NCBI GenBank assembly: GCA_018303245.1
Contig: JAGVYM010000010.1
Location: 1 to 33,688, forward strand
DNA from: Candidatus Woesearchaeota archaeon
Lineage (GTDB): Archaea; Nanobdellota; Nanobdellia; Woesearchaeales; ARS49
Reading direction: 5' to 3'
Length of the DNA stretch: 33,688 bases
Shown here: one piece after another, positions 6,471-32,819 of the stretch
How positions within the stretch are numbered: the first letter of the stretch is position 1
Layout of the letters: each line of letters begins with the position of its first letter
Translations under genes and position numbers: made by a program
Notes under the pieces: generated by a model
Database searches by the model: none
The model's input: only the letters and a program-made list of their open reading frames with translations
What the model was told of the DNA's origin: nothing

Positions 6471-6471
6471 T

Positions 6472-7048: not shown

Positions 7049-7082
7049 ACAATTTTTAGTTCATTTACGGTAGTTCACCGTT

Positions 7083-7718: not shown

Positions 7719-7730
7719 TTTTCTCACACG

Positions 7731-7831: not shown

Positions 7832-7874
7832 AAATTCAGGCACAGCACCCGAACAAAAAGAGGATGGTTTTACT

Positions 7875-8036
7875 TTGAGCACAGGCATCACGCGCCGCTT
7901 GCAGCGAACGCCGAAAGATCAGTATACGGTGACGATTCCTAAAACGTTGGTCAAGCTTCTCAAGTGGAACAATAAAGACGAGCTTGAGTTTGATTTTGAG
8001 AACGGTAAATTGACGCTTAAAAGGGTGAGAAAGTGA
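7875..8036 (+). CDS. small AbrB/SpoVT-like DNA-binding protein (53 aa), not in the ORF track
   Basis: The frame is open from 7776. Translation is ..YTVTIPKTLVKLLKWNNKDELEFDFENGKLTLKRVRK. The only in-frame start is TTG 7875. Its stop, TGA 8034-8036, overlaps GTG 8033 of the giant gene (GTGA). The start is uncertain, and a frameshift from ATG 7828 is not excluded. Confidence 0.5.
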   Translation: MSTGITRRLQRTPKDQYTVTIPKTLVKLLKWNNKDELEFDFENGKLTLKRVRK

Positions 8037-11000: not shown

Positions 11001-14000
11001 GAAGGTATAACTTTTCGGTTGAGGCAAATGATACGAGCACGCACGACAATAGTAATTTTACCTCTGGCTTTTTTACCATCGCAAACGTGACTTCTTGTCC
11101 AGCAGTACTGCTTGCGAATACGACGCTTGCACAGAACATTTCTGCGACAGGTAGTTGCCTTTCGTTTGGAGAAAACAACATCATGCTCGACTGTAATGGA
11201 TTTGCCATCCGTTATGACAGTTCAGGCACAGGGGCCGCTTCTGGAATAACTGCCAGCGATAAAGTGAATGTCACGATTAAGAACTGTGTTCTCATAGATT
11301 CTTCTCTTGTGGGCGGGGAAAGTGTAGCGCTTAATCTGACGAGGACCAATCAAAGCTCGCTGACCAATCTTACTGTTCAGACGAATGGTACTAATGATAA
11401 TTATGCGCTGTTCATGTTGCACTCGTTTGAGAACACGCTGGTGAATCTGACGCTGCGCAGTAATGGCAGCGCGGGAAACAATACAGTGGTTTATCTGATA
11501 AATTCCTCAAGGAATAACTTCACACAGCTTACTGCGAGTGCGAACGGTTCTGCCAACAACACCGGGATTCTGGTGCAGGCAGCGCACGGGAATAGTTTCG
11601 TGAATGTTGCGCTGAACACATCGGGAACCTCAAGCTATGGAGTGGAGATTCGTTCAAGTGAGAACAACACGTTCCAGAATATTAGTTTGCGTACTGTGCA
11701 ATGGATTAACGCGAGTGTAAGTGCTGCGACGAATTTTACTAATACTGCTTTCGTCACCGGAACTGGTAGCCTGCTTTATCCTGGAGTTGTGACGATGACA
11801 GGGACGCACGACATCACTTCGACCAAAGTCGCTCTGACTTCGAATAGGACGTTTGTCAACAGCACCAATCTTTCGTTCCTGAACGTTTCCGCGCAAGTCG
11901 CTTTGTTCAGCATTAATTTCACCAGTCCTGCGATGCTTTATGATCAGAACGATAACGGTAGCTTTATCGATTGTACTTCGCCGCGTTGTGTTAACGTGAG
12001 TTTTGCAAGCAATGTCTTCACTTTCAACGTGAGCAGCTTTACAACATACGCGGCTACCGCGTCGCTTCAAAATGTCACGTTCAGCATCTCTGATATGCCT
12101 GATCCGGTGAGTCGCGGGGGCCAGTTGAATTACACAATCATTGTGAACAATACGGGAACAGAGACTGCGTTTAACGTGACGGTGAATTCTACCTATGCAT
12201 CAAGTGTGGTGTTTGATAGTTCTTCTCCATCAGCTGCTGGAAACATCACGTTCAGTTTGGGAAACATTAGCGCGGGAAGCGTGTTCATGATTAACATCAC
12301 GGTGAATGTGAGTCTTTCATCATGGAATGGTACGCTTTTGAACCACTCGGCGAACGTCACGTTTACGAACGCGTCTGGTCAAGCGACTTTGCAGGCCACA
12401 AGTCAGCTTACGCTGGTGAGGGGAACTCCGGGAATTAGTACGAGCATGACTGATTCTCCTAGTCCAGTTATGGTGGGAAGTACGTTGAGGTATAACATTA
12501 CGGTGAACAATTCAGGTGATGATACTGCGTTCAATGTGAGCGTGTTGGAGTCGTATCCTTCGGGTGTTGTGTTTAACAATAGTTTTCCTTCGCCAAGTTC
12601 GGGGAATGAGACATTTACAATTGGTACGCTTGCGCCGAACCAGTCGACCACAATCAATATCACAGTAAACGTAAGTTCAGGTGTGGCGAACGGTACAACG
12701 CTCAATAATTCCTATATGGTCACGTTTGGGAATGCTTCGGGCATGAATAGTTCGGTGACCAACAGTACGTTGACGACCGCGCAGGCGACGTTTGTGGCGA
12801 ATGTGAGTGCGAACATGAGTGACTCTCCTGATCCTGTCGTGCGGGGGGCACAGCTGAATTATACAATAACTATCAACAACACAGGAAGCGATGGAGTGTA
12901 CAACGTGAGCGCGGTGGAGTCATATCCTGCAGGAGTGGTTTTCCATAGCTCTTCTCCAAGTTCCAGTTCAGGGAATGGTACTTTTATACTTGGCAATCTC
13001 ACTGCAGGGACGGGTACGACTGTTAACATCACTGTGAACGTGACCGCTTCCAACGCGACGTCATTGAACAATACTGCGGCGATTAACTTTTCGAATGTGG
13101 CAGGGTTGACGACGACCATCAGCGCAAGTACGCTCACATTGGTGCGTGGATTTCCAAGCATGACTGCGAGTGTTAACGATACTCCTGATTTTGTTTTAGT
13201 GAACAAGAGTGTTCTTTACCAAGTATTGCTCAATAATTCAGGTGATGATACTGCGTTCAATTCCACCTTGGTGTTGACCTATCCGACTGGAACGATTTTC
13301 AACGCGAGCGCGCCGGTTCCGGTGTTGGGAAACACCAATTTCACAGTGGGTAATTTCTCTCCCAACCAGACCTTGCTGGTGAATCTGACGCTCAATGTAA
13401 CCAGCGCGGTTGAGAATGGGACAAGTCTGAACTTGTCAGGTGTGCTTTCGTTTGGAAACGCGTCGGGCTCAAACACGAGTGTTGTTGCAAGTGTGCTCAC
13501 CACTGTCCGTGGTTTCCCGTTCATTGTAGTGACGCATTCTGACTCTCCTGATCCAGTTTTCAGAGGCGCAACTCTGGTCTATACGGTGAATGTGACGAAC
13601 GCAGGTTATGATATCGCTTACAACACGACCCTTGTGGAAAGTTATCCTTCAAATACAACTTTCCTTAACGCATCGCCCGCTCCTTCAATTGGCAATTCCA
13701 CGTTTAATCTGGGTAACCTTTCGATAAATAGCTCTGCAGTTGTTGTTATACTGCTGAATACTACAACAGGAATTGCGAACGCGACCCAATTGAATAATTC
13801 GGTCAACGTGTCTTTTGTGAATGGTTCAAGCGAGTCATCTGAAGTGAATGTTTCAGTCTTGACAACAGTCATTGCAGGTTCTGCTCCTTCAGTCGTATCA
13901 AGTGGTCCGTTGAACCGTACCAACCTGACGATATCTACGCAGGTATTCAGCGCAAATGTTACGGACGATTCATCTGCAAATTTCACTTGCCTGCTTGCGA

Positions 14001-16558: not shown

Positions 16559-17472
16559 AGGTCGTGTTACTCATTTTGTTGCTTTCCACACTGGTTGTCG
16601 CTGCGTCTTCAGAGGATGCCCGAGAGGCGTATTTGAACGCGACGGTGCACGTCGAGCAGATGAAACGGGCAGGTTTTCCGCACGGTTTGATGGATGGCTT
16701 GCTTCAGGATATGGAAATCGCGCTCAAAGGTAAGAATGCGTCAAAACTACTCCAGACTGCTTTGATTCTCAACCAGACAGAAGAGGGAATACTGAGAGCG
16801 CAGGAATATTTTGCAGAGCTTGAGTCTGCCCGTTTGCAGGGTTTGCAGCCTGGCCAGAATTTCTCAATGGTCATCCACTATGCGCAACTGATTGCGTACA
16901 AGCGCGAGCAAGCTTTTGAGGCTCGTGATGAACTTAAGAGAGTGGAGGAGATTATCGCAGGAGCAGAGAATATCAATCTGTCGCGGGTGAATGAACTGTT
17001 GCAGGAGGCGCAGGATTCATTTGCGAGTGAGAAGTACGAGCTGATTCCTGGCTTGGTGAACCAGACTGAGGTCGCGTTGGAAGACGCAAAAGTTGCCGCT
17101 GCGCGTAACCGTGCTCTTGCCCGCCTTGCCCGTCGTAATCTGTTGAGTTTTGTCGAGGATAATTGGTTGAGCGTGCTTGTTGTGTTGTTGATTTTTTCCG
17201 TGCTTGGCCTCTGGGGATTTGTGGAGGGCAGGGTTTTTTATGCCGCGAAAAAGGTGCGAGTGCTGGAAAGCGAGCTTGCCGCCGCGCATGAGGGGCTGTT
17301 GCAGGCGCAGAAAGAGTATTACTCTGGAGAAAGTGGAAGGTCGACCTATGGAGCGCGGACCGAAAAGGTGCATGAGAAACAGCGAGCAATTAGCAGCCAG
17401 CTCCACGCCTGGCGTGAACTGCATGCCAAATACTTGAAGACGGCCGTTATCGCGCGATTCAGGCCAAAGTGA
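16555..17472 (+). CDS. signal-peptide plus C-terminal-TM anchored helical protein, partner of the giant protein
   Basis: ATGA start/stop overlap with the giant gene, with GAGGT 8 nt upstream. Signal peptide MKVVLLILLLSTLVVAASS. TM helix WLSVLVVLLIFSVLGLWGFV. The cytoplasmic tail carries the same Q-E-x-Y-[FY] motif as the giant protein. Confidence 0.75.
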   Translation: MKVVLLILLLSTLVVAASSEDAREAYLNATVHVEQMKRAGFPHGLMDGLLQDMEIALKGKNASKLLQTALILNQTEEGILRAQEYFAELESARLQGLQPGQNFSMVIHYAQLIAYKREQAFEARDELKRVEEIIAGAENINLSRVNELLQEAQDSFASEKYELIPGLVNQTEVALEDAKVAAARNRALARLARRNLLSFVEDNWLSVLVVLLIFSVLGLWGFVEGRVFYAAKKVRVLESELAAAHEGLLQAQKEYYSGESGRSTYGARTEKVHEKQRAISSQLHAWRELHAKYLKTAVIARFRPK

Positions 17473-18334
17473 AGACTTCTTGCTCAGGGTAGACGACGAT
17501 TCCTTGTCCCGTCTTGATTTGGAAAGGAACGATTTTTTTCTTGAAGCCGCTTCCGCGCATCTTGAGGATTTCAAACGCGCTTTCACGCACGTTTCCCTGT
17601 CGCAGGTTGTAGAAGATGAATACTCCGTCCGCGAGGAATTCTTCTGAGCCTGAACTGCTGAGCTTAACTCCAGGATCGTTCGATTCGGAGATAAGGAATG
17701 TCGTTGCCCCTATTTCCTTGAAAATGTTGAATAGTTGTTCGATATAGATTCGGTAGGATTCTTCTTTGCCGTATAGTGCCGAGGCGACTGCGGAGAGCGA
17801 GTCGATGGCGACGCGGTCGGGCTTGTAATCGGAAGGGATAACCATTGGGCGGATGTCGATGAGAAGTTCTCCTTTGATGCGTTCCATCATGGCGTCTATT
17901 TGGCGAGTGATGTCCATGGGTGTGAATTTGCGTATCATGAAGTGTCCACTTTTTTCAAGGGGGGCTATGTCCCAGCCAAAATCTTTCATGTGTTTGCGCA
18001 ATGTTTCCGGTGTTTCTTCAAGGGTTATGTAGAAGACGCGTTCTCCCGCTTTCGCGGCGTGATAGAGTGTTTGGAGACAGAAGATGGTTTTTCCGCTTCC
18101 TGGTCCCCCGATGGTGAGGATAGAACTTCCGCGGGGGATTCCGTTCATGAAAAGTTCATCAAGTCCCACCACTCCTGTTCCAACATACTCTTGTCCGCTG
18201 ATGGGAATCTTGCGGTGAGGTTGGGCTTCTTGGAGTTTTTGTTGGATATGTTCTTTTATTTTTGCCGCGTCAATGAGTGGCCTGTGGATTTCAGTAGGGG
18301 ATGTTGTTTGAGCGGGAACCTCTTTTTTTGGCAT
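17459..18334 (-). CDS. single-domain KaiC-like (RecA-superfamily) ATPase
   Basis: GLDELFMNGIPRGSSILTIGGPGSGKT (Walker A), YITLEE (catalytic Glu pair), RVAIDSLS (Walker B), FLADGVFIF. The 3' end overlaps the convergent gene by 14 nt. Confidence 0.9.
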   Translation of the reverse strand: MPKKEVPAQTTSPTEIHRPLIDAAKIKEHIQQKLQEAQPHRKIPISGQEYVGTGVVGLDELFMNGIPRGSSILTIGGPGSGKTIFCLQTLYHAAKAGERVFYITLEETPETLRKHMKDFGWDIAPLEKSGHFMIRKFTPMDITRQIDAMMERIKGELLIDIRPMVIPSDYKPDRVAIDSLSAVASALYGKEESYRIYIEQLFNIFKEIGATTFLISESNDPGVKLSSSGSEEFLADGVFIFYNLRQGNVRESAFEILKMRGSGFKKKIVPFQIKTGQGIVVYPEQEVFTLA

Positions 18335-22161: not shown

Positions 22162-23832
22162 TTATTTAGAGAGGTTGTGGCCGCGGTGGCTGTCAACCAT
22201 TAAGAAGAGGTGGTTTGCTTTGTATTTGAACTCGTCGGCAGCGACTCTTGTGAGGATTCCTTTTTTCTTCAACTCATCGATATAGCTTAGAATCTGGTCG
22301 CGGCTCAAGCTTTCTTGCCGTAAATCTTCGAACTCGCTCGCTCCGATCGGTCCCAAAAGTTCGGAGAAAAGCTCTGCGAGTTTTTTCTCGATTTGGTCTT
22401 TGGTTGAGAAGAGCACTCTGATTGGTTTTATTTCTTTGACAGGTTTTAAGGGCAGGGTAAAAAAGAAAGTGGTTCCTTTTCCGACAGCGCTTTCAAGCCA
22501 GATTTTTCCGTTCTGTGAAAGCACAATTCCTCTGCATATTGCAAGCCCAAGTCCGTTTCCTCCATTTCCTCGGTACATAGTTTGCTCTGCCTGGAAGAAT
22601 GGCTCGAAAAGTTTGAGTTGGTCTTTGGGCGAGATTCCGACTCCTTGGTCTTTGACGCTGAAACGGATGAAGTCCCGCTCGAGTTGTGCGGTGACAAGGA
22701 CAGTTGTTTTTTCTTTTGAGAACTTGACTGCGTTGCTTAAGAGGTTGCGTAGGACTTGGGTGAGTCGGTCAGGATCTGTTTCAATGATGGGAAGCTTGCC
22801 GAATTTTTCAGTTATTATGATGTGTTTCTTAGGCATGAACCCTTGCATGTACGAGATGACTTCGCGCGCGGTTTTTGCCACATCGGTTTTTTTGAAGTTG
22901 AATTTGAGGCGCGCCGCTTCGATGCGCGAGATTTCAAGGAAGTCAGCTATTATGGTGTCGAGTCGGTCTGCGTTTCGCATGATGACTTGAAGGCCGTCTT
23001 TTTGTTTCTTGTTGAGCTTGCCATAGTATCCCTGTTCGAGCATTTGGAGCTGTGCTTTCATGGGCGTCATGGGGCTGCGAAGTTCGTGTGACGTGATGCT
23101 TAAGAATCGTGTTTTTGCCTGATCGATTTGTTTACGTTCCTCGTCGAGTTTACTTAATGCCTCGGTTGCCGTGTCGAACACGGTTCCGAGTTCTTGGAGT
23201 TCGTCGTTGGTCTGGATGTTTGCTTTTGCCTTGAAGTTTCCTTCGGAGAGCTGGTGGGCGGCGGTGTAGAGCTGCTTTATCGGCTGGGTGAGGAGTTGGG
23301 TTGAGTGGTACGCGGCTGCGAGTGCTATGGCTGCGCTCGCCAAGACGAATATGATGATAGTAACAAGTCCCTTCGGCAGATAGTTATAGGAGGTAGGAGG
23401 GGAGATGAGGCCCATGCGCAGGGTTCCTTTCGTTCCAACAGGATAGGCAATATCGTGGATGGTGCCTTCGGGAGTTTGGAGCATGAGTGTGTTTGTGGCA
23501 TGTTCGAGCGAAGGACCGTTCGCATGGATGATTTCTGGAGAGACGGGTTGTGCTTGGGCTACTACTCCGCGCGCATTTGTGATGAAAACGTATGCGATTG
23601 ACGGGTCGCTTTTTTTGAGTGTTGTGAGTTGTGCTTGGGCTTCGAGAAGGTTGTGGCTTGAGAGCGCGGGGAGTGTCTTTTGTACGGCTTGAAGTGCAAG
23701 GGCGTTTCCGCGGGCATGCATTTCCTCGGTGCGGATGTCGGCGAACGTTTTCCAGGAGATTGATACTGCGGTAAGTGCGAGAAAAAGAATGATTCCTACG
23801 CTAATCAAGGTGAATTTGGTGCGTAAGTGCAT
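22162..23832 (-). CDS. membrane sensor histidine kinase (2 TM, extracellular loop, HAMP, HisKA, HATPase_c) with an extra ~85-aa C-terminal extension
   Basis: HAMP: PIKQLYTAAHQLSEGNFKAKANIQTNDELQELGTVFD. H box: SHELRSPMTP. N box: LLSNAVKFS. G boxes: DQGVGI and GNGLGLAI. Start is set to ATG 23832 on the basis of a TATA box and GAGG; the track ORF begins at 23910. Confidence 0.9.
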   Translation of the reverse strand: MHLRTKFTLISVGIILFLALTAVSISWKTFADIRTEEMHARGNALALQAVQKTLPALSSHNLLEAQAQLTTLKKSDPSIAYVFITNARGVVAQAQPVSPEIIHANGPSLEHATNTLMLQTPEGTIHDIAYPVGTKGTLRMGLISPPTSYNYLPKGLVTIIIFVLASAAIALAAAYHSTQLLTQPIKQLYTAAHQLSEGNFKAKANIQTNDELQELGTVFDTATEALSKLDEERKQIDQAKTRFLSITSHELRSPMTPMKAQLQMLEQGYYGKLNKKQKDGLQVIMRNADRLDTIIADFLEISRIEAARLKFNFKKTDVAKTAREVISYMQGFMPKKHIIITEKFGKLPIIETDPDRLTQVLRNLLSNAVKFSKEKTTVLVTAQLERDFIRFSVKDQGVGISPKDQLKLFEPFFQAEQTMYRGNGGNGLGLAICRGIVLSQNGKIWLESAVGKGTTFFFTLPLKPVKEIKPIRVLFSTKDQIEKKLAELFSELLGPIGASEFEDLRQESLSRDQILSYIDELKKKGILTRVAADEFKYKANHLFLMVDSHRGHNLSK

Positions 23833-23867
23833 ATGTTCCTCTTTTAGTGCAGAATATCGAAGGAGAG

Positions 23868-23876
23868 TATTTAAAG
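23868..23876 (-). promoter_or_regulatory. TATA box for the histidine kinase
   Basis: The minus-strand CTTTAAATA lies 35 nt upstream of ATG 23832, with AAGAGGAAC just before the ATG. Confidence 0.45.
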
Positions 23877-23899
23877 TCTTTGGAGAAGGTAAGCGTGGT

Positions 23900-24418
23900 C
23901 TACTTCTCAATCACGATTGTTTTCTCGACGTACATGCAGCAACGGGGAATGAATTTTTCTTGTTCGTTGAGCGCGTAGAAGACTGCTTTTGTTTTGGTCT
24001 CGCGGATTTTGTTGAGCAGCACAAAGATGAGGTCTTCAACGCCTTCTGTTTCTTTGTAGCTAAACAGGTTGGTTAGCGAGTCGAAGACAAGGTAATCGTA
24101 TTCTTGCTGGATGATGGTGTGGAGCGCAGCGAACGCGTCTGAGATGGACGTAGGGCTTACGAAGTAGCATTCTTTTGGGATGTCTTTTGCTTCTTTGAGC
24201 GAGCGGGTTATGGCGTCGACAAACAGGATGTTGTCAGTCTTGATTTTGTTTTTTTTGAATAGTTCCTTCAAGGCCCCGTATGTCTTGTTCAAGGTGACAT
24301 AGCAGACGCGTTTGTCGCTTAATGTCTTTATGGTTTCAAGAACGATTTTATTATACTCGATGCCAGGCATGAGTAAAAGGATGGTCTGATTGTCGGAGAG
24401 TTCTTTGATGATGTCCAT
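23900..24418 (-). CDS. P-loop-less KaiC-like domain protein (DUF835-like), copy 3
   Basis: RVCYVTLNKTYGALKELFKKNKI, DYLVFDSLTNL (Walker-B-like) and TKAVFYALNEQE follow the KaiC-like block order. No Walker A. It starts 2 nt after the CheY gene. Confidence 0.6.
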   Translation of the reverse strand: MDIIKELSDNQTILLLMPGIEYNKIVLETIKTLSDKRVCYVTLNKTYGALKELFKKNKIKTDNILFVDAITRSLKEAKDIPKECYFVSPTSISDAFAALHTIIQQEYDYLVFDSLTNLFSYKETEGVEDLIFVLLNKIRETKTKAVFYALNEQEKFIPRCCMYVEKTIVIEK

Positions 24419-24420: not shown

Positions 24421-24771
24421 TTATGCCATCTTTTTTACTTTTTTGATGAGTTCGTTGATGTCGAACGGTTTTTGGATAAAGTCGATGATGTTGCCGTTCG
24501 AAAGAAGTTGTTCACGTTCCGCGTCGCTTGTCCGCACTGCGCTGCAATATACAATCTTGATTCCTTTGATTTTCTTGACGATGTCGCGCACCGGGGTTCC
24601 TGGCATCATGATGTCAAGCAGGATGAGGTTTGGTTTGACAGTCTCAAGTTTCTTCAAACAGTCATCACCGTCAATCGCCAAGATGGTGTTGTAGCCTTCA
24701 CGCTCGAGGATGGTCTTGATTGTCTCACGGATATCTGCCTCATCGTCGACAATCATGATAGTCTTGGGCAT
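24421..24771 (-). CDS. stand-alone CheY-like receiver protein
   Basis: IMIVDDEADIRE, LILLDIMMPG (phospho-acceptor Asp), YCSA and FIQKPF (conserved Lys). Confidence 0.9.
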   Translation of the reverse strand: MPKTIMIVDDEADIRETIKTILEREGYNTILAIDGDDCLKKLETVKPNLILLDIMMPGTPVRDIVKKIKGIKIVYCSAVRTSDAEREQLLSNGNIIDFIQKPFDINELIKKVKKMA

Positions 24772-24864: not shown

Positions 24865-25317
24865 TCACATTAAGTTTTTCATCTTGTTCCATTTCTGGAC
24901 GGTGAGGCTCGTATCGTCTTGGGTTTGAACCTCGAGGCTTTCGATTAAGAGTTGGCCAACTGGTCCTTTAGGCAGGACTTTTTGCAGTGTTTCTTGAAGT
25001 GCTTTGAGGAATTTTTTGGCTTGTGCTTGTTTGGTGAAGTGAGCGTTGAGTGCTACGGGAGATTCAGTCATGGCTTCGAAAAATCCTCCTTTTTCAAAGA
25101 GGAATCGTTCGTATGATTTCTCGCCGATGACATCCATGCCTAAGTAATACATCGTCTGCTTCATTTTTTTCTCAAGGAGGTTTACAAATTTGACGAGTTC
25201 GTCGCGTGCGCGTTCCTGTTCTGCAAAGTCCTGTTCGAGGCTTTTTTTCTTTCTGACTTCAAACGGCAAAAGTTCTCCTACATCAAGCAATGGGACTGAA
25301 AAATGGTTGGTGTTCAT
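24865..25317 (-). CDS. hypothetical protein translationally coupled to the V4R gene
   Basis: 150 aa. ATGA overlap with the V4R gene stop. No motif recognised. Confidence 0.6.
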   Translation of the reverse strand: MNTNHFSVPLLDVGELLPFEVRKKKSLEQDFAEQERARDELVKFVNLLEKKMKQTMYYLGMDVIGEKSYERFLFEKGGFFEAMTESPVALNAHFTKQAQAKKFLKALQETLQKVLPKGPVGQLLIESLEVQTQDDTSLTVQKWNKMKNLM

Positions 25318-25799
25318 GGTGACCTCCTAATCGTGCATTCAAGGACAGAGCCGCTGATTTTAACAGTGCAGTCCATGTTGGTTTTGAATAGGAATGAGAA
25401 CATTCCAGCTAAGGCCGCGCAAGGTAGGATTCCATGTTCTGGACCAAGTTTAACTGATGGGTTCCGTAGTGGGCAGTCCCTGATTTTGATGGATGCTGTT
25501 TTTTTTGAGTTGTCAAGCGCGTTGATTTCGGGTTTTCCTAATCCGAATGTTTCAAAAATTTCCTCAAGGACTTTGAGCAAACCCTCGCTAGTGGACCCGA
25601 CTTTTTTCGCGTAGTCTTCCATGCTGGAGTTGATTGTTTTTTTCACAAGGGTGTAGGACTTTTTTGGATCAACGCTTTGCAGCGCGACGAGTACTTCTGC
25701 CGGTAGCATAACTTGTTTCTTTCCGAGAATCTCTATCTTTCCGTCCGAAAGATCGAGTTGGCGTGCGAAAAGAAGTTTTTTGAGGAACGGTGAAAGCAT
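25314..25799 (-). CDS. V4R (4-vinyl-reductase-like) small-ligand-binding domain protein
   Basis: The N-terminal LLFARQLDLSDGKIEILGKKQVMLP hairpin and the Cys-bearing core CPLRNP...GILPCAALAGMFSFLF...C resemble V4R/XylR-N-type proteins (COG1719-like). Assignment by eye. Confidence 0.65.
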   Translation of the reverse strand: MLSPFLKKLLFARQLDLSDGKIEILGKKQVMLPAEVLVALQSVDPKKSYTLVKKTINSSMEDYAKKVGSTSEGLLKVLEEIFETFGLGKPEINALDNSKKTASIKIRDCPLRNPSVKLGPEHGILPCAALAGMFSFLFKTNMDCTVKISGSVLECTIRRSP

Positions 25800-25821: not shown

Positions 25822-25900
25822 TTTTAAATAAGTTCGTGTTTCTTAGGTTTTGGCTGTGTTGTTGTTCCCCAGGCGTGAAAATAGGAAATGTTTTTATAAA
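25822..25900. promoter_or_regulatory. divergent promoter region between the V4R and FIST operons
   Basis: The minus-strand TATTTAAAA (25822-25830) lies 22 nt from ATG 25799. The plus-strand TTTTTATAAA (25891-25900) lies about 100 nt upstream of FIST ATG 26002, which has an AGAGGT RBS. Confidence 0.4.
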
Positions 25901-26001
25901 CGAAACAATTAAGGACTCACGTCGAAGGTATGAGGTGATGCCAAAACGCCGGTTAGTTGCTTGTGGCGGATTCTCTCCTGTTCGTCAAAAGAGGTAAGAC
26001 T

Positions 26002-27303
26002 ATGAATAAGCAGAATCTTGTTGTCGGAATTGGATGTTCTAAAAACAAAGACGGTTACGTTGCCGCGTGCGATGCCGCCGGGCAGGCGCTCAAACAGCTT
26101 GGAGGCAAAAAGCCAACAATCTCTTTTGTGTTTTACGCAGGAGAATACAATCCTAAATCGCTTAACAAAGGGTTTCTTAACGTTCTCGGGAAGACTGAAT
26201 TTGTCGGTGGATCAACTGATGCAGTCATTTACAAGACTGAAATCATTCCTGTGGGTGTTGTTGTCTGCTCGTGGTATTCGGAGTATTTGCACGTTGGTGT
26301 TGCATCTTCTGATAATGTGCGCAAGAATCCGTATGCTATTGCCAAGAAAACAGTGCTTGATGCAGTTCACAAGATTTCAGTGGATAAATATCTCGATTCG
26401 TATATGCAGTTTGCCCGCATGAAAAAGGAAGACTTGGCTAGTCTGACAAGGATTCCGTCTTTTTTCACGTTCTTGTTCACTCGTGGATATGAGCAGAACA
26501 GGATGGGGAATGAAGATATCATCATCGAGGGGACCGCGGATGCGATCGGACATTATATCCCTATTTTTGGAGGATCGCTTGGTAATAATATGGACAAAGT
26601 TTTCAGAGGCGAGCCGTACGAGATTTATACGTTCCATTCAGGAAAAATCTACAAGGACGGTCTTGCAGCAGTATTTGCATATTCAGGTCTTGTGTACAGC
26701 AATTCAATCGCGCACGGCGGCGAGCCCATGGGGAAGCTTGGCTACATTTCGAAAGTGAAGGGTGGTGGTTTTGTCGTTTCAGAAGTTTGTGACAAGCCCA
26801 TAAAGCAGTGGTATGCCGAGACGTTAGGAGTGCCGCTTAAGAAGTTCGTGAAAAATATTCTTTTTTACACGCAGAAATATCCTCTTGGATTCCCTGATGG
26901 GTACGGTAACATTGTTATGCGCGCAGGTGGTGTTCCATTTGGCAATGATCTTTCCTACATTGCACCGTTCAGGGAGAATACTCCGGTCTGGGTGATGAAT
27001 ATTGAGGCTAACAAGCTTATTGTGAAGGCGCCGGAACAGATTAAGAAGGACATCAAGCAGCATCTTGGCAAGGCTCTCACGCCGCTGCACACGTTTGTCG
27101 TATCCTGTTCATCGCGGCGCAGGATTCTTGATTCGAAGAGCTCGAAGAAAGAGCTTCAGACAATCGCGAAGATGTCAAAGTTACCCCTTGTTGGGTTTTG
27201 CAGTTTTGGCGAGATAGGTTCCCGTCCTGCTGAGACGTGTCATTACAATCATCTCTGTACGAATCTGTTCAATTTATACAATGAAATCCTGCCGGATCTC
27301 TAG
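26002..27303 (+). CDS. FIST-domain sensor protein (FIST_N plus FIST_C)
   Basis: Start at ATG 26002; the track uses TTG 25957. SFVFYAGEY...FVGGSTDAVIY is FIST_N-like. PLVGFCSFGEIGSRPAETCHYNHLCTNL matches the FIST_C ending (GfytyGEi....fHNqT). Confidence 0.8.
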   Translation: MNKQNLVVGIGCSKNKDGYVAACDAAGQALKQLGGKKPTISFVFYAGEYNPKSLNKGFLNVLGKTEFVGGSTDAVIYKTEIIPVGVVVCSWYSEYLHVGVASSDNVRKNPYAIAKKTVLDAVHKISVDKYLDSYMQFARMKKEDLASLTRIPSFFTFLFTRGYEQNRMGNEDIIIEGTADAIGHYIPIFGGSLGNNMDKVFRGEPYEIYTFHSGKIYKDGLAAVFAYSGLVYSNSIAHGGEPMGKLGYISKVKGGGFVVSEVCDKPIKQWYAETLGVPLKKFVKNILFYTQKYPLGFPDGYGNIVMRAGGVPFGNDLSYIAPFRENTPVWVMNIEANKLIVKAPEQIKKDIKQHLGKALTPLHTFVVSCSSRRRILDSKSSKKELQTIAKMSKLPLVGFCSFGEIGSRPAETCHYNHLCTNLFNLYNEILPDL

Positions 27304-27308
27304 GACTT

Positions 27309-28583
27309 ATGATGCAAGAGACTGCTTTTGGAGAATTGCATGCCGATGAGCAGTTGGTGCACGATTTCGAAATGCAAAGGGCGCGCGATGAAGTGCGTCT
27401 TCGCGAGATTCTTGATTCATATCCTGACAAGAATAATATAGACCCTGACACGCTTCCGTCTGAAACTTGGGGCTTGCTTGCCTGGGAATTCATGGACCTT
27501 GGTTTGAGGGATCGGATACTTGCAGGGATGTTTCGTCATTCGCTTGCCCGCGCGAAAAAAGCGATGCCGATTTATGAACAATCGCTTGCGTACGTTGATG
27601 TTTGTCCTGAGCTTTTTGAGTCGATGGAACAGCTTGTGCAGATTCCTGTTCTGGTAAAAGATGGCCTTCATGGCTTTCGGCAGAAAGTGCGGTCAAATCC
27701 TTCGCTGTTGCGTCCAACTGATAAAGCTGTCCTGATGACGCCGTATCTTTCCGGGGGGACCGGGATTGATAACCAGACTGTTGGTAAATCTACACCGACG
27801 TGGATTAGTGAGCGCGATCTGGAAAGAGAGAGTCTTGCGCTTGCGTTCCGCTGTTTTCTTCCGGGTGGTTTTTCAAAAGCGATGAAGTTTATGAATTTTT
27901 ACAATCTCGCACACAAGGGGGGCGAGGAAATCAAGCGTGCAATCAACCATTTGGGTGCGCAGGTTTTCCTGCCGCGCAGGCCCGAGGATAGCGTTGAACA
28001 GTGCCTTGAATATATGGACCTCTTTGGCATCACCGCGCTTGCGGCTGTTCCTCAGTCCCCTCGTGATAAGAAAGGAGCTCCTAAAGGAGGTGCAGTTTCA
28101 TTCGACGATCTTTATGCTCGTAAGGCTGAGCTGTTCGGAAGCAAAGGAACAGTCAAGAGCGCGTTTGTGACCGGGTTTGCCATTCCTGAAAGTGTAATCA
28201 ATCTTGCGCAGCGAAATTCGCTCAATCTTTTTTCAACGTGGGGCGCAAGCGAAGCGATTCCTGGTGCAACATCGACAGTTCTTGGCCCGCCTACTCGTAT
28301 TTGTAAATACAATAATCAGCATCTGCTGTATTTTCCCCATTATCTTGCAGTAATGGATTTGACGGGTGCGCAGCCACGTTTCTGCCAGCCAGGTGAGGAA
28401 GGATTGCTTCTTGTGACAACAATTGCTCGTGATGGGACATTGTTCATAAACTATGCCATTGGGGACAGGGCAACAGTAATCTCCAATCACTGTGAGTGTG
28501 GAAGGACAACACCAGTGATAGGCAAAATCCGTCGTGAGGATAACCCTGGTGAACTCTCAAGTGGAGGATGCAGGTACGCATGA
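27309..28583 (+). CDS. PaaK / coenzyme-F390-synthetase / LuxE-like adenylate-forming enzyme lacking the C-terminal subdomain
   Basis: IPVLVKDGL is a ligase N-terminal motif. TPYLSGGTGIDNQTVGKSTP is a P-loop SSGTTGKPT with an insertion. GLLLVTTIARDGTLFINYAIGDRATVISNHCECGRTTPVIGKIRRED matches GELVxTxL...PxIRYRxGD...CxCGR...GRxDD. The ORF ends 12 aa later. Confidence 0.75.
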   Translation: MMQETAFGELHADEQLVHDFEMQRARDEVRLREILDSYPDKNNIDPDTLPSETWGLLAWEFMDLGLRDRILAGMFRHSLARAKKAMPIYEQSLAYVDVCPELFESMEQLVQIPVLVKDGLHGFRQKVRSNPSLLRPTDKAVLMTPYLSGGTGIDNQTVGKSTPTWISERDLERESLALAFRCFLPGGFSKAMKFMNFYNLAHKGGEEIKRAINHLGAQVFLPRRPEDSVEQCLEYMDLFGITALAAVPQSPRDKKGAPKGGAVSFDDLYARKAELFGSKGTVKSAFVTGFAIPESVINLAQRNSLNLFSTWGASEAIPGATSTVLGPPTRICKYNNQHLLYFPHYLAVMDLTGAQPRFCQPGEEGLLLVTTIARDGTLFINYAIGDRATVISNHCECGRTTPVIGKIRREDNPGELSSGGCRYA

Positions 28584-30031
28584 CAATCCGCATCACGAAT
28601 TTCGTGGGCGGCAAGTTCCATGATTCATTGGATGGAGCATTTAGTGTTTCAAGTCCGTTCTTTGATTACGCGGTTGACGTTCCCAATTCGTGTGTTCTGG
28701 ATTTAGGTGACGCGTTTTCAGTCGCAAAAAAAGCGCAAGTGGCATGTGCGAGCCTGTCTTTTGAGGCGCGTCGTGAAATTCTCAAAAAAGCTGCAGAACG
28801 ATTCATCATTTCTGATGAGGAGCTGGCACATTTGGTCAAGATGCAGGGCATGCCTATCCGGTTTGTGAAACAGCACGCCATGTATTCGCGTGAGTTGTTT
28901 TTTCATACTGCGAATGCGGCAGAGCGTAGGCATGGTCATGCTTTGGGCCACCTTGGGGAAAGCATGGACGTGCACGGCTTTGAGCTTAGCCTTCCTCCAG
29001 AGGGGATTGCCGTTGCGTTCATTCCGCCCAATGACCCTGCGGAGGCCGCGTTTGTCCTTTCGCATGTTGTGATGAGTGGCGCAGTGATTATCATAAAGCC
29101 AAGCCAGCAGGAGCCTTATATGGCGTTGAAAATTGCAAGCTTGTTGACTGAGTGCGGGTATCCTCCAGGCGGAATCAATGTTGTTCATTGGAATACTGCG
29201 GATGCAACCCGTTCAGAGTTGACACATTTTTTACTGCGTGATTCAAAATATCGTATTTTTATGGGAGATTATGATAGTGCGCATACAATGTTTGCTTCTG
29301 TGGAGAACAGGAACGCAAAGAACTGTATTTTTTCCGCAGGAAAATCAAAAGCGATTGTGGATGATGGGGCAGATCTTGAGCGCACGGCAGAGAGCATCAT
29401 TGAGTCATCTCTTTATTGGACTAATAATTGTGTTTCGACGAAATCAGTCATCGTTGTGGGGGAACAGAATGCCAAGCGATTGAGTGAAATTCTGGAGCGC
29501 AAGTTCAGGGATTTTATGGTTGGAGATCCGTTTAATCCTGACACGACAATAGGGTATGTTGATGAGAAAACACTCGATGAGCTTGAGCAGGTAGCAAGAG
29601 GGCAGAATGATTTTTCTTATGCTCACTTCCACCATAATTTTGTAAGGGTTAATAAGTTTCAAATGAATCCGCTTCTTGTTTGGCTACCGCATCCTGATGC
29701 CGAGTCGCCATTTGTTTCACATGAGTTTCCATACACCCTTGCAGTTATGTCAGTCCCAACGTTTGAGGACGCAGTGCATTTTGTCAATGAGGCGAGTGGT
29801 TTTCTGCTTGAGAAAAAGTCAATGGCGGTTTCGTTGTATGCAACTGAAGCTTCATTTACTGACTTCGCAAAGAGCAATCCCGGAAAACTTAAAAGCATTA
29901 TTGGGCTAAAGTCCCATTTGCTGTTTTACAACAAGCCATCGACGTGCCTCTCGCCTCATTTGAGGCATCAGGGGACTGATCTTACTGGTTTTTTATCGCG
30001 GCCTATGACGATTGTTGATTCAAAAATCTGA
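28568..30031 (+). CDS. aldehyde-dehydrogenase-superfamily protein of the CoA-acylating / acyl-CoA-reductase (EutE/PduP/LuxC-like) type
   Basis: IIIKPSQQEP, INVVHW and IFMGDYDS are cofactor motifs. FSAGKSKAIVDDGADLERTAESII replaces the ELGGK motif, as in G(A)GNPPxVVDETAD. WTNNCVSTKSVIV carries the catalytic Cys in an NNxC..(E/T)K context. An alternative start at ATG 28580 forms an ATGA overlap with the ligase stop. Confidence 0.75.
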   Translation: MQVRMTIRITNFVGGKFHDSLDGAFSVSSPFFDYAVDVPNSCVLDLGDAFSVAKKAQVACASLSFEARREILKKAAERFIISDEELAHLVKMQGMPIRFVKQHAMYSRELFFHTANAAERRHGHALGHLGESMDVHGFELSLPPEGIAVAFIPPNDPAEAAFVLSHVVMSGAVIIIKPSQQEPYMALKIASLLTECGYPPGGINVVHWNTADATRSELTHFLLRDSKYRIFMGDYDSAHTMFASVENRNAKNCIFSAGKSKAIVDDGADLERTAESIIESSLYWTNNCVSTKSVIVVGEQNAKRLSEILERKFRDFMVGDPFNPDTTIGYVDEKTLDELEQVARGQNDFSYAHFHHNFVRVNKFQMNPLLVWLPHPDAESPFVSHEFPYTLAVMSVPTFEDAVHFVNEASGFLLEKKSMAVSLYATEASFTDFAKSNPGKLKSIIGLKSHLLFYNKPSTCLSPHLRHQGTDLTGFLSRPMTIVDSKI

Positions 30032-30071: not shown

Positions 30072-30800
30072 CTACTTAAGAACAATCATCCCCTTGTCCG
30101 CAATTTTCATGGGAATGGGATCGCGTCGGTGATTGGTTCGTCGCATTTTTACGACACGAATCGCGCGGTCTGCTTCGCCGCCAAGGCCTGCGCTGTGGAG
30201 GGTGATGACTGAGTCCGCGACAAATTCTAGGAGGCCTTCCCGGCTCAAATTTCCTCCTCCTGATGTAACATCGAGCGGGGGTTCGCCGTCCAGTTCAGCA
30301 GTCATTACAACGGTGCAGTCAAGTTCTTTCAGGAAACGCGAGAGCTTGTAAAGTTCTGTGCGCAGCTGGAACGTGTCCCCTTTGAACGACATCGAGAAGA
30401 TTGACACCGAGTCGATTACCACTCGCTTGATGGCGTATTTGGAAATCAAGGTTGCCATTTCTTTCTGCATGTTCGGGCTTTCATAGGGCTTGAATGAGAG
30501 GAAGAAGCATTGTCGTTTTTTCTCGAATTGGTCGAAATCCCAGCCAAACATGCTTGCATCTGCTTTTAGAGACTCCACATTTTCATCAAAGGTAACGACA
30601 AGGCCGGGCTCGTTGTTAAGCGCTCCGTTGTAGATGTATTGGAGGCCAAAAATTGTTTTGCCTGAACCTGGGCCGCCCGATATCATGATGAGTGAGTTTT
30701 TCACAAATCCGCCTTCGATTGCAGGGTCGAATCCAGGTATGTTGGTCTTGATTCGTTGAAGGTTGTATTTTTTGGAGGGCTGTTTGGTTTGTTTTTTCAT
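30072..30800 (-). CDS. single-domain KaiC-like ATPase (second of adjacent pair)
   Basis: IPGFDPAIEGGFVKNSLIMISGGPGSGKT, VVTFDEN, RVVIDSVS and FVADSVITL. Confidence 0.9.
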   Translation of the reverse strand: MKKQTKQPSKKYNLQRIKTNIPGFDPAIEGGFVKNSLIMISGGPGSGKTIFGLQYIYNGALNNEPGLVVTFDENVESLKADASMFGWDFDQFEKKRQCFFLSFKPYESPNMQKEMATLISKYAIKRVVIDSVSIFSMSFKGDTFQLRTELYKLSRFLKELDCTVVMTAELDGEPPLDVTSGGGNLSREGLLEFVADSVITLHSAGLGGEADRAIRVVKMRRTNHRRDPIPMKIADKGMIVLK

Positions 30801-30802: not shown

Positions 30803-31567
30803 TTACTCCTTGGTGTCGTGTACGGTGATTCCATTGCTAGCAATTTCAAAACCGTGAACGCCGCTGTCGCTTTTTGTTCCTCTCATCTTTCGCACGAGCA
30901 GTGAGCGGGAAGTCTGCCAGGCATTGATTTCAAAGGTCATAAGGATAATTCCATCCGCGATAAACTCTGAAACGGTGTCTCTTGACAAAAATTCTCCTTT
31001 TTCAGGTGCTTCAGATGTTACCATGCTTGTGCAGCCCATCTGTTTGATGTCGTACAAGAATCCGTAGACGAATCTTTTGACGACGAAGTCTCCAAGAATT
31101 GGAGGAGAAAAGAATGCTTTGTAGTTCATGATGTCGCGCAGCGCGATGTCTTTGATTGGCGTGTAGACTGGCGCATTGACCGAAAGTGTTGAAAGTGAGT
31201 CGATGACGAGCCGTTGGATTTTTCGTTCTTTGACTTCTTTTTTGATGAGTTCGATGGTTTGTGTTGTCAAGTCATGGATTGGGACATGCATGAGCGTGAG
31301 CATTCCTGTTTTTTCAAGTTTTTTTAAGTCAAGCCCGATTTGCATCGCCTGTTCGCGCAAGTCATCAAGGCTTTGTTCAAGGGTAACATACATGCATTTC
31401 TCTTTGAACTTTGAGGCGCCGTTGTACAGAAATTCAAGCGTGAAGAGGGTTTTTCCTGTTCCTGGTGTTCCGATGAGAAGAATTACTGCTCCTTGAGGAA
31501 GTCCTCCTTGGACGAGCTTGTCAAATCCTTTGATGCCAGTTGGTACTCGTTTGGGCACATGAATCAC
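30803..31567 (-). CDS. single-domain KaiC-like ATPase (first of adjacent pair)
   Basis: IKGFDKLVQGGLPQGAVILLIGTPGTGKT, YVTLEQS, RLVIDSLS and FIADGIILM. AGAGGTGA RBS. The stop lies 2 nt before the next KaiC-like start. Confidence 0.9.
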   Translation of the reverse strand: MIHVPKRVPTGIKGFDKLVQGGLPQGAVILLIGTPGTGKTLFTLEFLYNGASKFKEKCMYVTLEQSLDDLREQAMQIGLDLKKLEKTGMLTLMHVPIHDLTTQTIELIKKEVKERKIQRLVIDSLSTLSVNAPVYTPIKDIALRDIMNYKAFFSPPILGDFVVKRFVYGFLYDIKQMGCTSMVTSEAPEKGEFLSRDTVSEFIADGIILMTFEINAWQTSRSLLVRKMRGTKSDSGVHGFEIASNGITVHDTKE

Positions 31568-31604: not shown

Positions 31605-32819
31605 TTATGCTTTGGGAGTTATCTCTATGCTGGCAGGCGGTCGCTCCGCTTCTTCTGTCACGTTTATCCACGAGCGGATGTCGTGTTCGAGTGTAAATAT
31701 TTCGCTTAAGTCCCGCATGAAAAAGACAAGCGCGTTGTCGACGAGTGTGAGATTCGCGACGACCATGATGTTGCTTCCGTCTTTGCAGTGGAGGGGGATG
31801 ACGAGGTCCTTGACGACCTGGTTTTTCTTGCAGGAGGTTATCGAGTCGAGGATTTTCTGTCGGACTTCTTTTTTGGGGAATATTTGAGAGAGTCCCTTGT
31901 CGCGGTCGTGCAGGTCTTTTTTCTGGTAGCCGGTGAGCTTGGTGAGCGTGTTGTTCGCAATGAGAACATGGTCATGTGTGTCAAAGGCAAGTACAGGGAC
32001 TCCTGCTTTCTCGATGAGTGCTTCAACGAAGTCTTTTTGTGAGCGAAGCTCGTCCTCTGTTTTTTTCAAAGGAGTGATGTTGCGCGAGAGGATAAGGATG
32101 CTGTTGATGCTTCCGTCATTGTTTTTGATGGGCGAGATGGTTTCAAGGCTCCAGAGGTGGCTTCCTTCTTTGTATCTTCCTTCGAACGTGGTCATTTTGC
32201 CGTGTTTTGCGGCGGCAAGCGCGCTTTTGAGTTTTGGCTTGTAGTCGTCCTGCAAAAAGCGGGCGAGTTGTTCTGCGTCGCAGGATTCTTTTGCACGGTA
32301 ATGTTTGATTGCACTTTCGTTCATGAAGATGGATTTTCCGCTGGTGTCAAGCAAGACGATGCAGTCAGGTGATGTTTGGGCGAGCACGCGGTAGCGTGCC
32401 TCGAGTTCTTTCTCGAGGTGTTCCGCGCGTTCTTTAGCTTCCAATGCTTCTCCTAGTTTGAGTTCTTCTTTTTTCAGTCCGACTTTCTCGACGGCAAGTT
32501 TGAGGCTTACTAGAATGCGGTCAAACGCTTTGGCGAGTTCGCCTATTTCATCAGTTCGTTCTTTTCCTTCGACGTGAATGTCGAGTTTTCCTTTGCTGAT
32601 GTCTTCGATGTTGCGCGTGAGCTTTTGGATAGGGTGGGTGATTGAGTACTCGGTCCGAAGCCCGATGGCGATAGCGGCAAGGAAGAGCAGGAAGACGATG
32701 GAGATTCCAGTCACCATGGTACTGTTGAGCGCGAAGAGTTTGAGTGCCGCTATGAATGCGAGTGCTCCAACGAGAAGGATGAAGAGCAGGCTGCCCGTGA
32801 GTTTTATTCCTATTTTCAC
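31605..32819 (-). CDS. membrane HAMP-PAS-PAS sensor without recognisable output domain
   Basis: GTG start with a GAGGT RBS. Two N-terminal TM helices. HAMP: HPIQKLTRNIEDISKGKLDIHVEGKERTDEIGELAKAFD. A coiled coil follows. PAS-like blocks begin at YRVLAQTSPDCIVLLDTSGKSIFMNESA and FVEALIEKAGVPVLAFDTHDHVLIANNT. Confidence 0.8.
   Translation of the reverse strand: MKIGIKLTGSLLFILLVGALAFIAALKLFALNSTMVTGISIVFLLFLAAIAIGLRTEYSITHPIQKLTRNIEDISKGKLDIHVEGKERTDEIGELAKAFDRILVSLKLAVEKVGLKKEELKLGEALEAKERAEHLEKELEARYRVLAQTSPDCIVLLDTSGKSIFMNESAIKHYRAKESCDAEQLARFLQDDYKPKLKSALAAAKHGKMTTFEGRYKEGSHLWSLETISPIKNNDGSINSILILSRNITPLKKTEDELRSQKDFVEALIEKAGVPVLAFDTHDHVLIANNTLTKLTGYQKKDLHDRDKGLSQIFPKKEVRQKILDSITSCKKNQVVKDLVIPLHCKDGSNIMVVANLTLVDNALVFFMRDLSEIFTLEHDIRSWINVTEEAERPPASIEITPKA

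Follow-up and report, generated by a model that had tools for sequence, protein, structure and literature searches.

We analyzed a 33,688-nucleotide contig of a Candidatus Woesearchaeota archaeon (JAGVYM010000010.1; hereafter the window, by which we mean this whole stretch), in which a gene for a FIST-domain protein is followed by genes for a PaaK-like adenylating enzyme (the ligase) and for a protein of the aldehyde dehydrogenase (ALDH) superfamily (the reductase). The ligase and the reductase probably form a two-component carboxylic acid reductase that works independently of coenzyme A (CoA), in the manner of LuxE and LuxC; we place the probability of this reading at roughly 0.6. A preliminary description of the window, made from its sequence, had proposed LuxE/LuxC logic for the pair, and the proposal was strengthened by our finding that the ligase ends in a conserved, disordered Gly-Cys tail that matches LuxE.

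The three genes are packed on the plus strand. The first encodes a stand-alone FIST_N + FIST_C protein of 433 aa (26002–27303; ATG at 26002, TAG at 27301–27303) and is preceded by a Shine-Dalgarno-like GAGGT at 25991–25995, 6 nt 5′ of its ATG. The ligase gene (424 aa; 27309–28583) starts with an ATG at 27309, 5 nt past the FIST stop, and ends with a TGA at 28581–28583 that overlaps the reductase ATG at 28580 (483 aa; 28580–30031). An alternative in-frame ATG for the reductase lies at 28568. All of these positions agreed with those in the preliminary description, and the spacing suggests that the FIST, ligase and reductase genes are co-transcribed.

The ligase lacks the roughly 100-aa C-terminal subdomain that carries the catalytic lysine (A10) in PaaK. 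This absence had been noted before under the word 'truncated'; the absence stands, and the idea of a defect does not. A word-index search for homologues of the ligase returned 18 clusters from Nanoarchaeota and Woesearchaeota-type metagenome bins, all of them 395–427 aa long with the exception of one partial sequence. In an alignment of the close family (A3, 17 ligase sequences), every member stopped 12–15 residues past the hinge arginine. The window ligase ends 15 residues past its own hinge residue, Arg409, which sits in ...CECGRTTPVIGKIRREDN, and 12 residues past the KIRREDN block. Because all homologues stop alike and the reductase start overlaps the ligase stop, the end of the ligase is not a frameshift. 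A frameshift or assembly truncation, which the preliminary description had raised as a danger to its own account, was thus ruled out, and no homologue extends further. We concluded that the short ligase is complete and that its length is the native architecture of the family.

Profile searches placed the ligase at some distance from named families. The Pfam AMP-binding model matched weakly (15.6 bits, below threshold), and the best NCBIfam match, 'DVU_1553 family AMP-dependent CoA ligase', was also sub-threshold (43.7 bits) and extended to profile position 328 of 331. The NCBIfam PaaK and F390-synthetase models, again sub-threshold, matched about the last 60–80 residues only, and the curated PaaK models scored far under their cutoffs (NF041878, 42 bits vs 700; TIGR02155, 19.7 bits vs 646). 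Pfam LuxE (PF04443) gave no match to the window ligase at E ≤ 0.01. Thus, among the families to which the preliminary description had pointed, FIST, FIST_C, Aldedh and LuxC were recovered in the three proteins, LuxE was not, and AMP-binding appeared below threshold.

Our family profile aligned to PaaK crystal structures across the whole N-domain. PaaK residue 7 fell at profile position 46, so the N-terminal extension of the ligase is about 45–50 aa, and not the ~100 aa first described; the remainder aligns to the N-terminal helical region of PaaK. The extension forms one long helix (residues 3–36). The P-loop (A3 motif), SGGTGIDNQTVGKSTPT at 27750–27800 on the plus strand, contains the insertion that had been reported. 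This insertion is 6 aa long but occurs only in the five closest of the 17 aligned members, the other 12 of which read SGG------TKGxPTPT.

An AlphaFold2 model of the ligase, built from the alignment (predicted local distance difference test score, pLDDT, 87.7; predicted template-modeling score, pTM, 0.88), consisted of a single PaaK-type N-domain without a C-terminal subdomain, in agreement with what had been read from the sequence. Confidence fell to a pLDDT of 63 at the P-loop insertion, and only three segments were disordered: residues 1–7, residues 253–260 and residues 417–424, the last two with pLDDT < 50. A Foldseek search of the Protein Data Bank (PDB) matched the model to the PaaK N-domains of BT_0428, PaaK1 and PaaK2 at a template-modeling (TM) score of about 0.65. 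Lower down was EhpF (3HGU/3HGV), an ANL enzyme of about 346–369 residues. Overall, PaaK-type ligases (2Y27, 2Y4O, 4R1L, 6SIW, 9S3L) were the best matches in both sequence and structure over the whole N-domain, sharing with the window ligase the N-terminal helical region, the P-loop, the A5 and A7 motifs, and the CxCGR...R hinge block. The window ligase differs from them in its extra N-terminal helix of ~45 aa, its missing C-terminal subdomain, and the absence of a paa gene context.

Two of the disordered segments hold residues of mechanistic interest. Loop 253–260 contains an xKGG motif with Lys259 (codon at 28083–28085, plus strand), which is invariant in the 17-member alignment; its equivalent in the wider family, K208-G209, is nearly invariant. 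Segment 417–424 is the Cys tail. Within the stretch from hinge Arg409 to Cys421, RREDNPGELSSGGC (28533–28571, plus strand), residues R409, G420 and C421 are invariant in the same alignment and Arg422 is nearly so (GGCRY). The tail Cys lies 11–12 residues past the hinge Arg across the family. A close precedent exists in LuxE, which has no C-terminal subdomain and carries in its place a motif of ~20 aa, TRxxKGCxLS, whose Cys364 is acylated from acyl-AMP (PMC9157457). For adenylation, LuxE uses Lys238 from a loop together with the hinge Arg355 in place of the usual Lys/Arg pair, and its flexible tail must swing more than 30 Å to reach Cys296 of LuxC (PMC9157457; cryo-EM structure 7XC6). By analogy, Lys259 is a candidate to stand in for the absent A10 lysine, and the Arg409–Cys421 segment is predicted to be a flexible, acyl-accepting arm. 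We therefore describe the ligase as a predicted acyl-protein synthetase of LuxE-type architecture.

Four other residues, encoded within about 28302–28499 of the window, attracted attention. C332, H338, C395 and C397 form a Cys-x5-His and a Cys-x-Cys pair that are invariant in the close family, and in the wider family the equivalents C270, H277 and C332 are conserved, with C334 nearly invariant. This pattern suggests a structural metal site, perhaps for zinc, beside the hinge.

The Cys tail extends well beyond the close relatives. A profile search of the full library gave 2525 matches at E ≤ 1e-3 and 134 at E ≤ 1e-10, the latter taking in full-length PaaK-type proteins as well. Among the matches listed, many proteins of 350–400 aa aligned to within 1–3 residues of their C-termini. 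All 16 of the short relatives that we read end in a ..G-C.. tail (e.g., QTGCTVWE, EGGCEVW, QGCAGA, FGCQAD) and also keep the xKGG loop. A scan of metagenomes for the wider family was made with a further alignment (A7); over genomes and metagenomes together, the ligases of 46 non-redundant loci all ended where the close family does, and the tail Cys (as G/S-C) was kept in 46 of 46. No NCBIfam model reached its cutoff for this wider family. Certain members carry additional domains. In P0077, a protein of the representative library, a phosphopantetheine (PP-binding) carrier domain directly follows the tail, an arrangement that fits a thiol-acceptor role at this position. In P0068 and P0098, an N-terminal O-methyltransferase (Methyltransf_2 plus dimerization domain) is fused to a Cys-tailed ligase. 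The three fusions together hint at roles of a natural-product type for the bacterial members.

Despite the likeness to LuxE, the broad family profile matched PaaK at E = 2.5e-51, EhpF at E = 0.012, and the LuxE chain 7xc6_E at E = 0.064 over 54 N-terminal residues. Judged by these matches, the ligase family derives from a PaaK-like stock, and the window ligase is not a Pfam LuxE member. Direct homology to LuxE was not demonstrable, given that LuxE chain result and the lack of a PF04443 match. The resemblance in architecture is thus of very ancient origin or else convergent.

This PaaK ancestry bears on another account of the two enzymes, an unlikely one in our judgment, by which they are uncoupled. 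The ligase would then be a PaaK-like synthetase directed to CoA, an amine or an alcohol, and the reductase would be a CoA-acylating ALDH or an acyl-CoA reductase acting on free acyl-CoA; in one variant, the ligase would form amides or esters as do NatL2, ClxA and AjiA1, or would make acyl-CoA by means of a trans-acting partner. The nearest structures do include PaaK-family amide/ester ligases (6siw, 6tm4, 9s3l, 6wuq), the NCBIfam name for the nearest short relatives is 'AMP-dependent CoA ligase', and free acyl-CoA can be reduced by LuxC in vitro, as has been published. However, it is the C-terminal subdomain of ANL enzymes that forms the CoA/pantetheine tunnel and catalyzes thioester formation, and this subdomain is absent here. 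It has not moved to SM150, a small protein encoded in the same module (see below), as judged with Foldseek. In addition, a G-C tail in 46 of 46 relatives and a carrier domain in P0077 would be hard to explain if the Cys had no role.

The reductase matched Pfam Aldedh at 116 bits and LuxC (PF05893) at 35.8 bits, both over the gathering thresholds. The LuxC match spanned profile positions 87–258 of 401 (gathering threshold 21), and the protein aligned with ordinary ALDHs over about 340–400 residues. All scores against NCBIfam equivalog models were ≤79 bits, where the cutoffs are 450–900. We compared key residues in the window protein and seven aligned orthologues. All of them keep N151 as the oxyanion Asn, K173 (in KPS) as the cofactor lysine, C284 (in NNC) as the catalytic cysteine, and E382 at the position equivalent to Glu399. 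The preliminary description had singled out a Cys in an NNC context and the replacement of ELGGK, and both observations were borne out: the Cys is Cys284, and IFSAGKSK replaces LELGGK, which puts Phe251 at the position of the general-base Glu. All seven orthologues have Phe or Tyr there. In terms of the set found in hydrolytic ALDHs (Cys302, Asn169, and Glu268 in ELGGK), the reductase has the Cys and the Asn, and its Glu has become Phe. Because the general base is replaced by Phe/Tyr, the thioacyl-enzyme is not expected to be efficiently hydrolyzed; such a loss is the state to be expected of a thioester reductase or an acylating dehydrogenase. LuxC, likewise of the ALDH superfamily, also has a catalytic Cys and lacks hydrolytic activity. 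In ALDHs the residue at the Glu195-equivalent position bears on the use of NADP(H), and the orthologues have Gln, Ala, Phe or Ser there, which is compatible with NADP(H) use. From these residues, the protein is predicted to be an acyl-thioester reductase. Annotation as an ordinary PaaK or an ordinary ALDH was ruled out for the pair by domain content, key residues and curated cutoffs.

The same residues could serve the opposite direction, although we regard this as very improbable. In the reverse reaction, an aldehyde would be oxidized to a thioacyl on Cys284 and transferred to Cys421; the ligase would then convert the thioacyl and AMP to acyl-AMP, and acyl-AMP and PPi to acid and ATP, amounting to CoA-free, ATP-conserving oxidation of aldehydes in energy-poor DPANN cells. 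The reductase resembles ordinary oxidative ALDHs more than it does LuxC, a thioacyl intermediate without a general base needs an acceptor other than water, and the overall reaction is near equilibrium according to our estimate from textbook free energies. Class I/II aminotransferases, enzymes that usually handle amino and keto acids, are found at related loci (L004/L005, L029) and resemble parts of amino-acid fermentation routes. Yet the known characterized analogues all run reductively (LuxCE and the carboxylic acid reductases, or CARs), and EhpF and EhpG have reportedly only been proposed to do so. Moreover, the module has no conserved enzyme, be it a keto-acid decarboxylase or an oxidoreductase, that would generate an aldehyde, and reverse operation is not known for any ANL enzyme that consists of the N-domain only.

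Returning to the two-component carboxylic acid reductase, we infer its chemistry, direction and substrate from the domain architecture, conserved residues, disordered tail and gene linkage. The PaaK-like N-domain would convert a carboxylate and ATP to an acyl-adenylate, with the lysine of the missing subdomain supplied from the N-domain itself, possibly by Lys259. The acyl group would next be transferred to Cys421 on the C-terminal arm to give an acyl-enzyme thioester. The arm would swing into the partner protein and hand the acyl group to Cys284 of the reductase. Lacking the water-activating Glu, the reductase would not hydrolyze this intermediate but would reduce it with NAD(P)H and release an aldehyde. 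As for the substrate, the PaaK ancestry, the V4R partner described below, and the aminotransferases of certain loci are weak pointers to an aryl acid or another small organic acid.

The surrounding genes show that the pair is usually part of a larger module. Ligase and reductase genes were adjacent in 39 of the 46 non-redundant loci, and five of the seven exceptions were at contig ends (39 of 41 assessable loci). Stop/start overlap or a spacing of a few nt was seen in the window and in L003, L004, L006, L008, L035 and L036. Within 6 kb of the ligase, a FIST gene was present in 29 loci, SM150 in 22, a V4R-like gene in about 24, and a KaiC-like gene in about 20. The set found in DPANN archaea consists of a V4R-like gene, a FIST gene directly 5′ of the ligase (frequently with overlapping stop and start), the ligase, the reductase, SM150, and one or two KaiC-like ATPases. 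It was seen in contigs labeled Woesearchaeota, Aenigmatarchaeota, Micrarchaeota, Iainarchaeota, Altiarchaeales and Nanoarchaeia, with ligase identities to the window down to 30–37%. The FIST, ligase and reductase genes are therefore linked to each other, and to V4R and KaiC genes, across DPANN phyla, as the preliminary description had thought worth surveying. Its unit of three genes was correct as to their linkage and too narrow as to the bounds of the module, to which SM150 at 24865–25317 also belongs.

The closest relative of the window module is in L009 (CAYHOF010000011.1; 42,886 bp), where the ligase is 71% identical. This contig is labeled 'Methanosarcinales archaeon', and a protein on what is apparently the same contig (P0170) is labeled 'Nanoarchaeota archaeon'. 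Several short contigs with the module are labeled Bacillota, Armatimonadetes or Elusimicrobia, and these are possibly mis-binned DPANN DNA. The pair alone, without the larger set, was found in contigs labeled Ignavibacteriales and Anaerolineales, and neither FIST nor SM150 accompanied it in L028, L030, L038, L045–L051 and L055, which are bacteria-labeled and other contigs. Since the pair occurs without FIST in bacteria-labeled contigs, FIST is a lineage-specific addition to a more widespread pair.

Extra genes accompany the module in some loci and look like tailoring enzymes for a small molecule. These are a short-chain dehydrogenase/reductase (SDR) together with the class I/II aminotransferase in L004/L005, the aminotransferase in L029, and a protein of about 520 aa with a Rossmann start in L019 and L022. 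In Micrarchaeota- and Iainarchaeota-type loci, a gene for a protein of about 310–350 aa lies between the ligase and the reductase (L017:10083–11039, L018:10163–11128, L024:10080–11123, and L059:3772–4707, the last encoding 311 aa). In L017, L018 and L024 the inserted protein is a polytopic membrane protein bearing an NLxGDIRDTxFD motif; that of L017 had no Pfam match at E ≤ 1. We considered a UbiA-type prenyltransferase on account of the NxxGDxxD-like motif and, given the Pfam result for L017, left the protein unnamed. Through it, the module may be linked to a substrate that is a lipid or resides in a membrane.

The FIST protein matched Pfam FIST (61.7 bits) and FIST_C (55.5 bits) above threshold and scored 26.8 bits against the NosP model NF041558 (cutoff 450). 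It belongs to a dedicated subfamily of 69 clusters, 68 of them 41–97% identical to the window protein and mostly of about 431–435 aa, whose members sit in this same module wherever the gene context is visible. NosP-like FIST sensors share its FIST_N + FIST_C domains, and the subfamily differs from them in being stand-alone and tied to an enzyme pair, not to a kinase.

SM150 is a conserved protein of 150 aa encoded on the minus strand (24865–25317). It is 44–60% identical to the product of the gene 3′ of the reductase in L001, L003, L006 and L008. The gene usually lies directly 3′ of the reductase and is relocated in the window to a position beside the V4R-like gene. We found 50 homologue clusters, all of about 151–154 aa, and no Pfam match for SM150. 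Its AlphaFold2 model (pLDDT 87.4) has a beta-alpha-beta4-alpha topology, and a Foldseek search of the PDB gave no match at E < 1e-3, the best being a weak AdoMetDC-like fold (TM ≤ 0.45, E ≥ 2e-3). The invariant residues H5, D12, Y58, D62, Y69, E70, R71, E81, E85, H93 and D135, most of them polar, suggest a binding or catalytic site. Two identities were considered for SM150 and rejected. It is not a detached ANL C-terminal subdomain, for the Foldseek matches contained no ANL C-domain, and it is not a pyruvoyl enzyme, as the AdoMetDC-like hint might imply, since the candidate residues Ser68 and Ser127 are not invariant.

The V4R-like gene (25314–25799, minus strand) diverges from the FIST operon and encodes a putative small ligand-binding protein. 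The protein's own sequence had no Pfam match (PF02830 included), and the V4R assignment made earlier for it is a putative one drawn from orthology. The protein shares 33–47% identity with its orthologues in L001, L003 and L008, and PF02830 V4R matches are present in two of these; over the orthologues, the match was weak in L008 and was recorded without that qualification in L003 and L059. A V4R-like profile matched MJ1460 (2osd) weakly (E = 0.32). The divergent intergenic region of 202 bp contains a TATA-box-like element, TTTTTATAAA, at 25891–25900 (strand unassigned), which, as read from the sequence, is a candidate for a shared archaeal promoter of both divergent units.

On the other side of the operon lie two single-domain KaiC-like ATPase genes on the minus strand. 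The first (242 aa; 30072–30800; PF06745, 190.9 bits) is convergent with the operon, and the second (254 aa; 30803–31567; 189.5 bits) is in tandem with the first. Scores of about 190 bits each leave the earlier mention of flanking KaiC-like ATPases secure. Both have an intact Walker A motif (GGPGSGKT and GTPGTGKT), and tandem KaiC pairs were also seen in L006, L035 and the P0229 locus.

A variant of the module in L035, L036 and the P0229 locus was informative. Here, FIST is 56–58% and SM150 49–56% identical to the window proteins, and the L035 ligase and reductase are each only 24% identical. The variant ligases are 454–477 aa long with tails ...GSCALD or ...HSCAGE, and the reductases (429–442 aa) keep the Cys. 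This pattern bears on the least probable of the readings that we weighed, in which the pair would act on a carboxylate of one of the proteins FIST, SM150 and KaiC-like ATPase, or else on a carrier-bound intermediate of the LysW type, and in which FIST and SM150 would be its actual targets or carriers. Conservation is higher in FIST and SM150 than in the enzymes, to which both are translationally coupled; SM150 is rich in invariant polar residues without a recognizable catalytic fold; and the order acid, aldehyde, aminotransferase in L004 echoes amino-acid pathways that use carrier proteins. Nevertheless, FIST and SM150 both lack a conserved acidic tail at the C-terminus and any carrier-type motif, the pair exists without either protein in bacteria-labeled and other contigs, and to our knowledge there is no precedent for the reduction of a protein carboxylate by ALDH-type enzymes.

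Several of these results weigh against a LuxCE-like carboxylic acid reductase. Lys259 is not at the sequence position of LuxE Lys238, and the reductase scores far higher with Aldedh than with LuxC (116 vs 35.8 bits). Acylating dehydrogenases that depend on CoA or phosphate and work in the oxidative direction also typically lack the general base. Because PF04443 gave no match and 7xc6_E reached only E = 0.064, the shared architecture may be convergent and function is not transferable by homology. Finally, FIST and SM150 are more conserved than both enzymes in the L035-type loci (56–58% and 49–56%, vs 24% and 24%), which is unexpected for mere regulators; thus, the center of the system may lie elsewhere.

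As for the partners, our best guess from gene context is that FIST and V4R bind the substrate or product of the reductase pair. They could either control the two enzymes or report the metabolite to the KaiC-like ATPases and the neighboring two-component proteins. Neither the window nor any related locus examined contained paa-type catabolic genes, as the preliminary description had said of the window, and its suggestion of signaling rather than catabolism may be right. More tentatively, and with considerable doubt, the six genes may be one system widespread in DPANN archaea, in which the reductase makes or removes a small aldehyde or its derivative, FIST and V4R bind it, and a KaiC/two-component network reads it out. 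A bolder version of this idea would have the pair run in reverse, as CoA-free, ATP-conserving aldehyde oxidation.

The surroundings in the window fit a connection of the module to signaling. Toward SM150 runs a head-to-tail series of minus-strand genes: a HAMP-HisKA-HATPase histidine kinase (22162–23910), a KaiC-like protein of 172 aa that lacks Walker A and has a weak DUF7504 match (23900–24418), and a stand-alone receiver protein (24421–24771) that adjoins SM150. A HAMP-PAS protein is encoded at 31605–32819. Homologues of the DUF7504-like and receiver proteins flank the module in L006, and a DUF7504-like homologue lies near it in L027. A third KaiC-like ATPase (17459–18334, minus strand; PF06745, 182 bits) is encoded 8 kb upstream of the module, so that the window has three intact KaiC-like genes and one Walker-A-less relative.

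Farther away, the window includes two other features. Its first ~8 kb has a GC content of 0.36–0.44 (0.36–0.40 at 1001–8000), compared with 0.44–0.51 elsewhere, and a tRNA-Glu(TTC) at 1107–1181 overlaps the start of a phage-integrase-family open reading frame (ORF) at 1072–2385; positions 1–8000 look like an element integrated at a tRNA gene. An ORF of 2841 aa (8033–16558, plus strand) with DUF11 repeats, NPCBM_assoc and Big_7 domains probably encodes a surface or adhesin-like protein of a kind common in DPANN archaea.

Comparison with known systems helps to define what is particular to the window pair. Like LuxE and LuxC, it has adjacent genes and a ligase that consists of an N-domain only, with a hinge Arg and a flexible Gly-Cys tail. 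The Cys is 12 residues from the hinge Arg in the window ligase and 9 in LuxE (R355, C364). It differs from LuxCE in giving no PF04443 match, in having its candidate Lys in another loop, in the lack of luxD or luxAB genes, in its archaeal host, and in its FIST, V4R, SM150 and KaiC partners. Myristate is an unlikely substrate for the window pair.

A second parallel is EhpF (3HGU/3HGV/3L2K), of the D-alanylgriseoluteic acid pathway. EhpF and EhpG are annotated as a 353-aa AMP-binding protein and an ALDH-family protein and lie side by side in phenazine clusters. Bera et al. in 2010 reportedly proposed that, of the carboxylates of phenazine-1,6-dicarboxylate, one is reduced by the two proteins to an aldehyde. 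As in the window, an ANL enzyme without a C-terminal domain has an ALDH-family neighbor, and EhpF resembles our ligase model (TM to target 0.63–0.64, identity 13%, root-mean-square deviation 6–7 Å). The Ehp genes belong to a secondary-metabolite cluster, whereas the window pair lies among sensor and ATPase genes.

CARs (A-PCP-R, e.g., 5MSC) resemble the proposed pair in their activation by ATP, the thioester on a swinging thiol, and reduction with NADPH to an aldehyde. They are single polypeptides with a phosphopantetheine arm and an SDR-type reductase, in contrast to the protein-Cys arm and ALDH-type reductase of the window. For the ATPases, the nearest comparison is with the archaeal KaiC 'signal hubs', in which, as in the window, single-domain KaiC-like ATPases stand beside two-component and PAS/HAMP proteins. 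The idea of such hubs is credited in PMC5847659 to Makarova et al. 2017 (mBio). In the literature searched, coverage of which did not extend to the supplementary neighborhood tables of the KaiC survey, we found no account of this module and no published link of FIST, V4R or KaiC to a ligase-reductase pair.

LuxCE already exemplifies the catalytic logic that we propose, and the same logic has been put forward for EhpFG. What appears to be new is twofold: the recognition of a large, uncurated PaaK-derived family that combines the Cys-tail architecture with an ALDH-like partner, and its fixed association in DPANN archaea with dedicated FIST, V4R-like, SM150 and KaiC-like proteins. If our reading is correct, then CoA-free carboxylate reduction of the LuxCE type reaches well past bioluminescence and one phenazine pathway, and the family would offer compact two-protein alternatives to CAR enzymes for aldehyde production. 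The genomes of DPANN archaea are very small and hold few conserved systems that are specific to their lineage. Because the six-gene module has been kept in at least five DPANN lineages with such genomes, it is likely important to them, with possible roles in host interaction, in lipid or metabolite salvage, or in signaling. Through the module, FIST domains and archaeal KaiC-like ATPases would gain a concrete biochemical partner, and, should the six genes indeed act as one system, they would constitute a metabolite-based signaling or host-sensing circuit specific to reduced symbionts.

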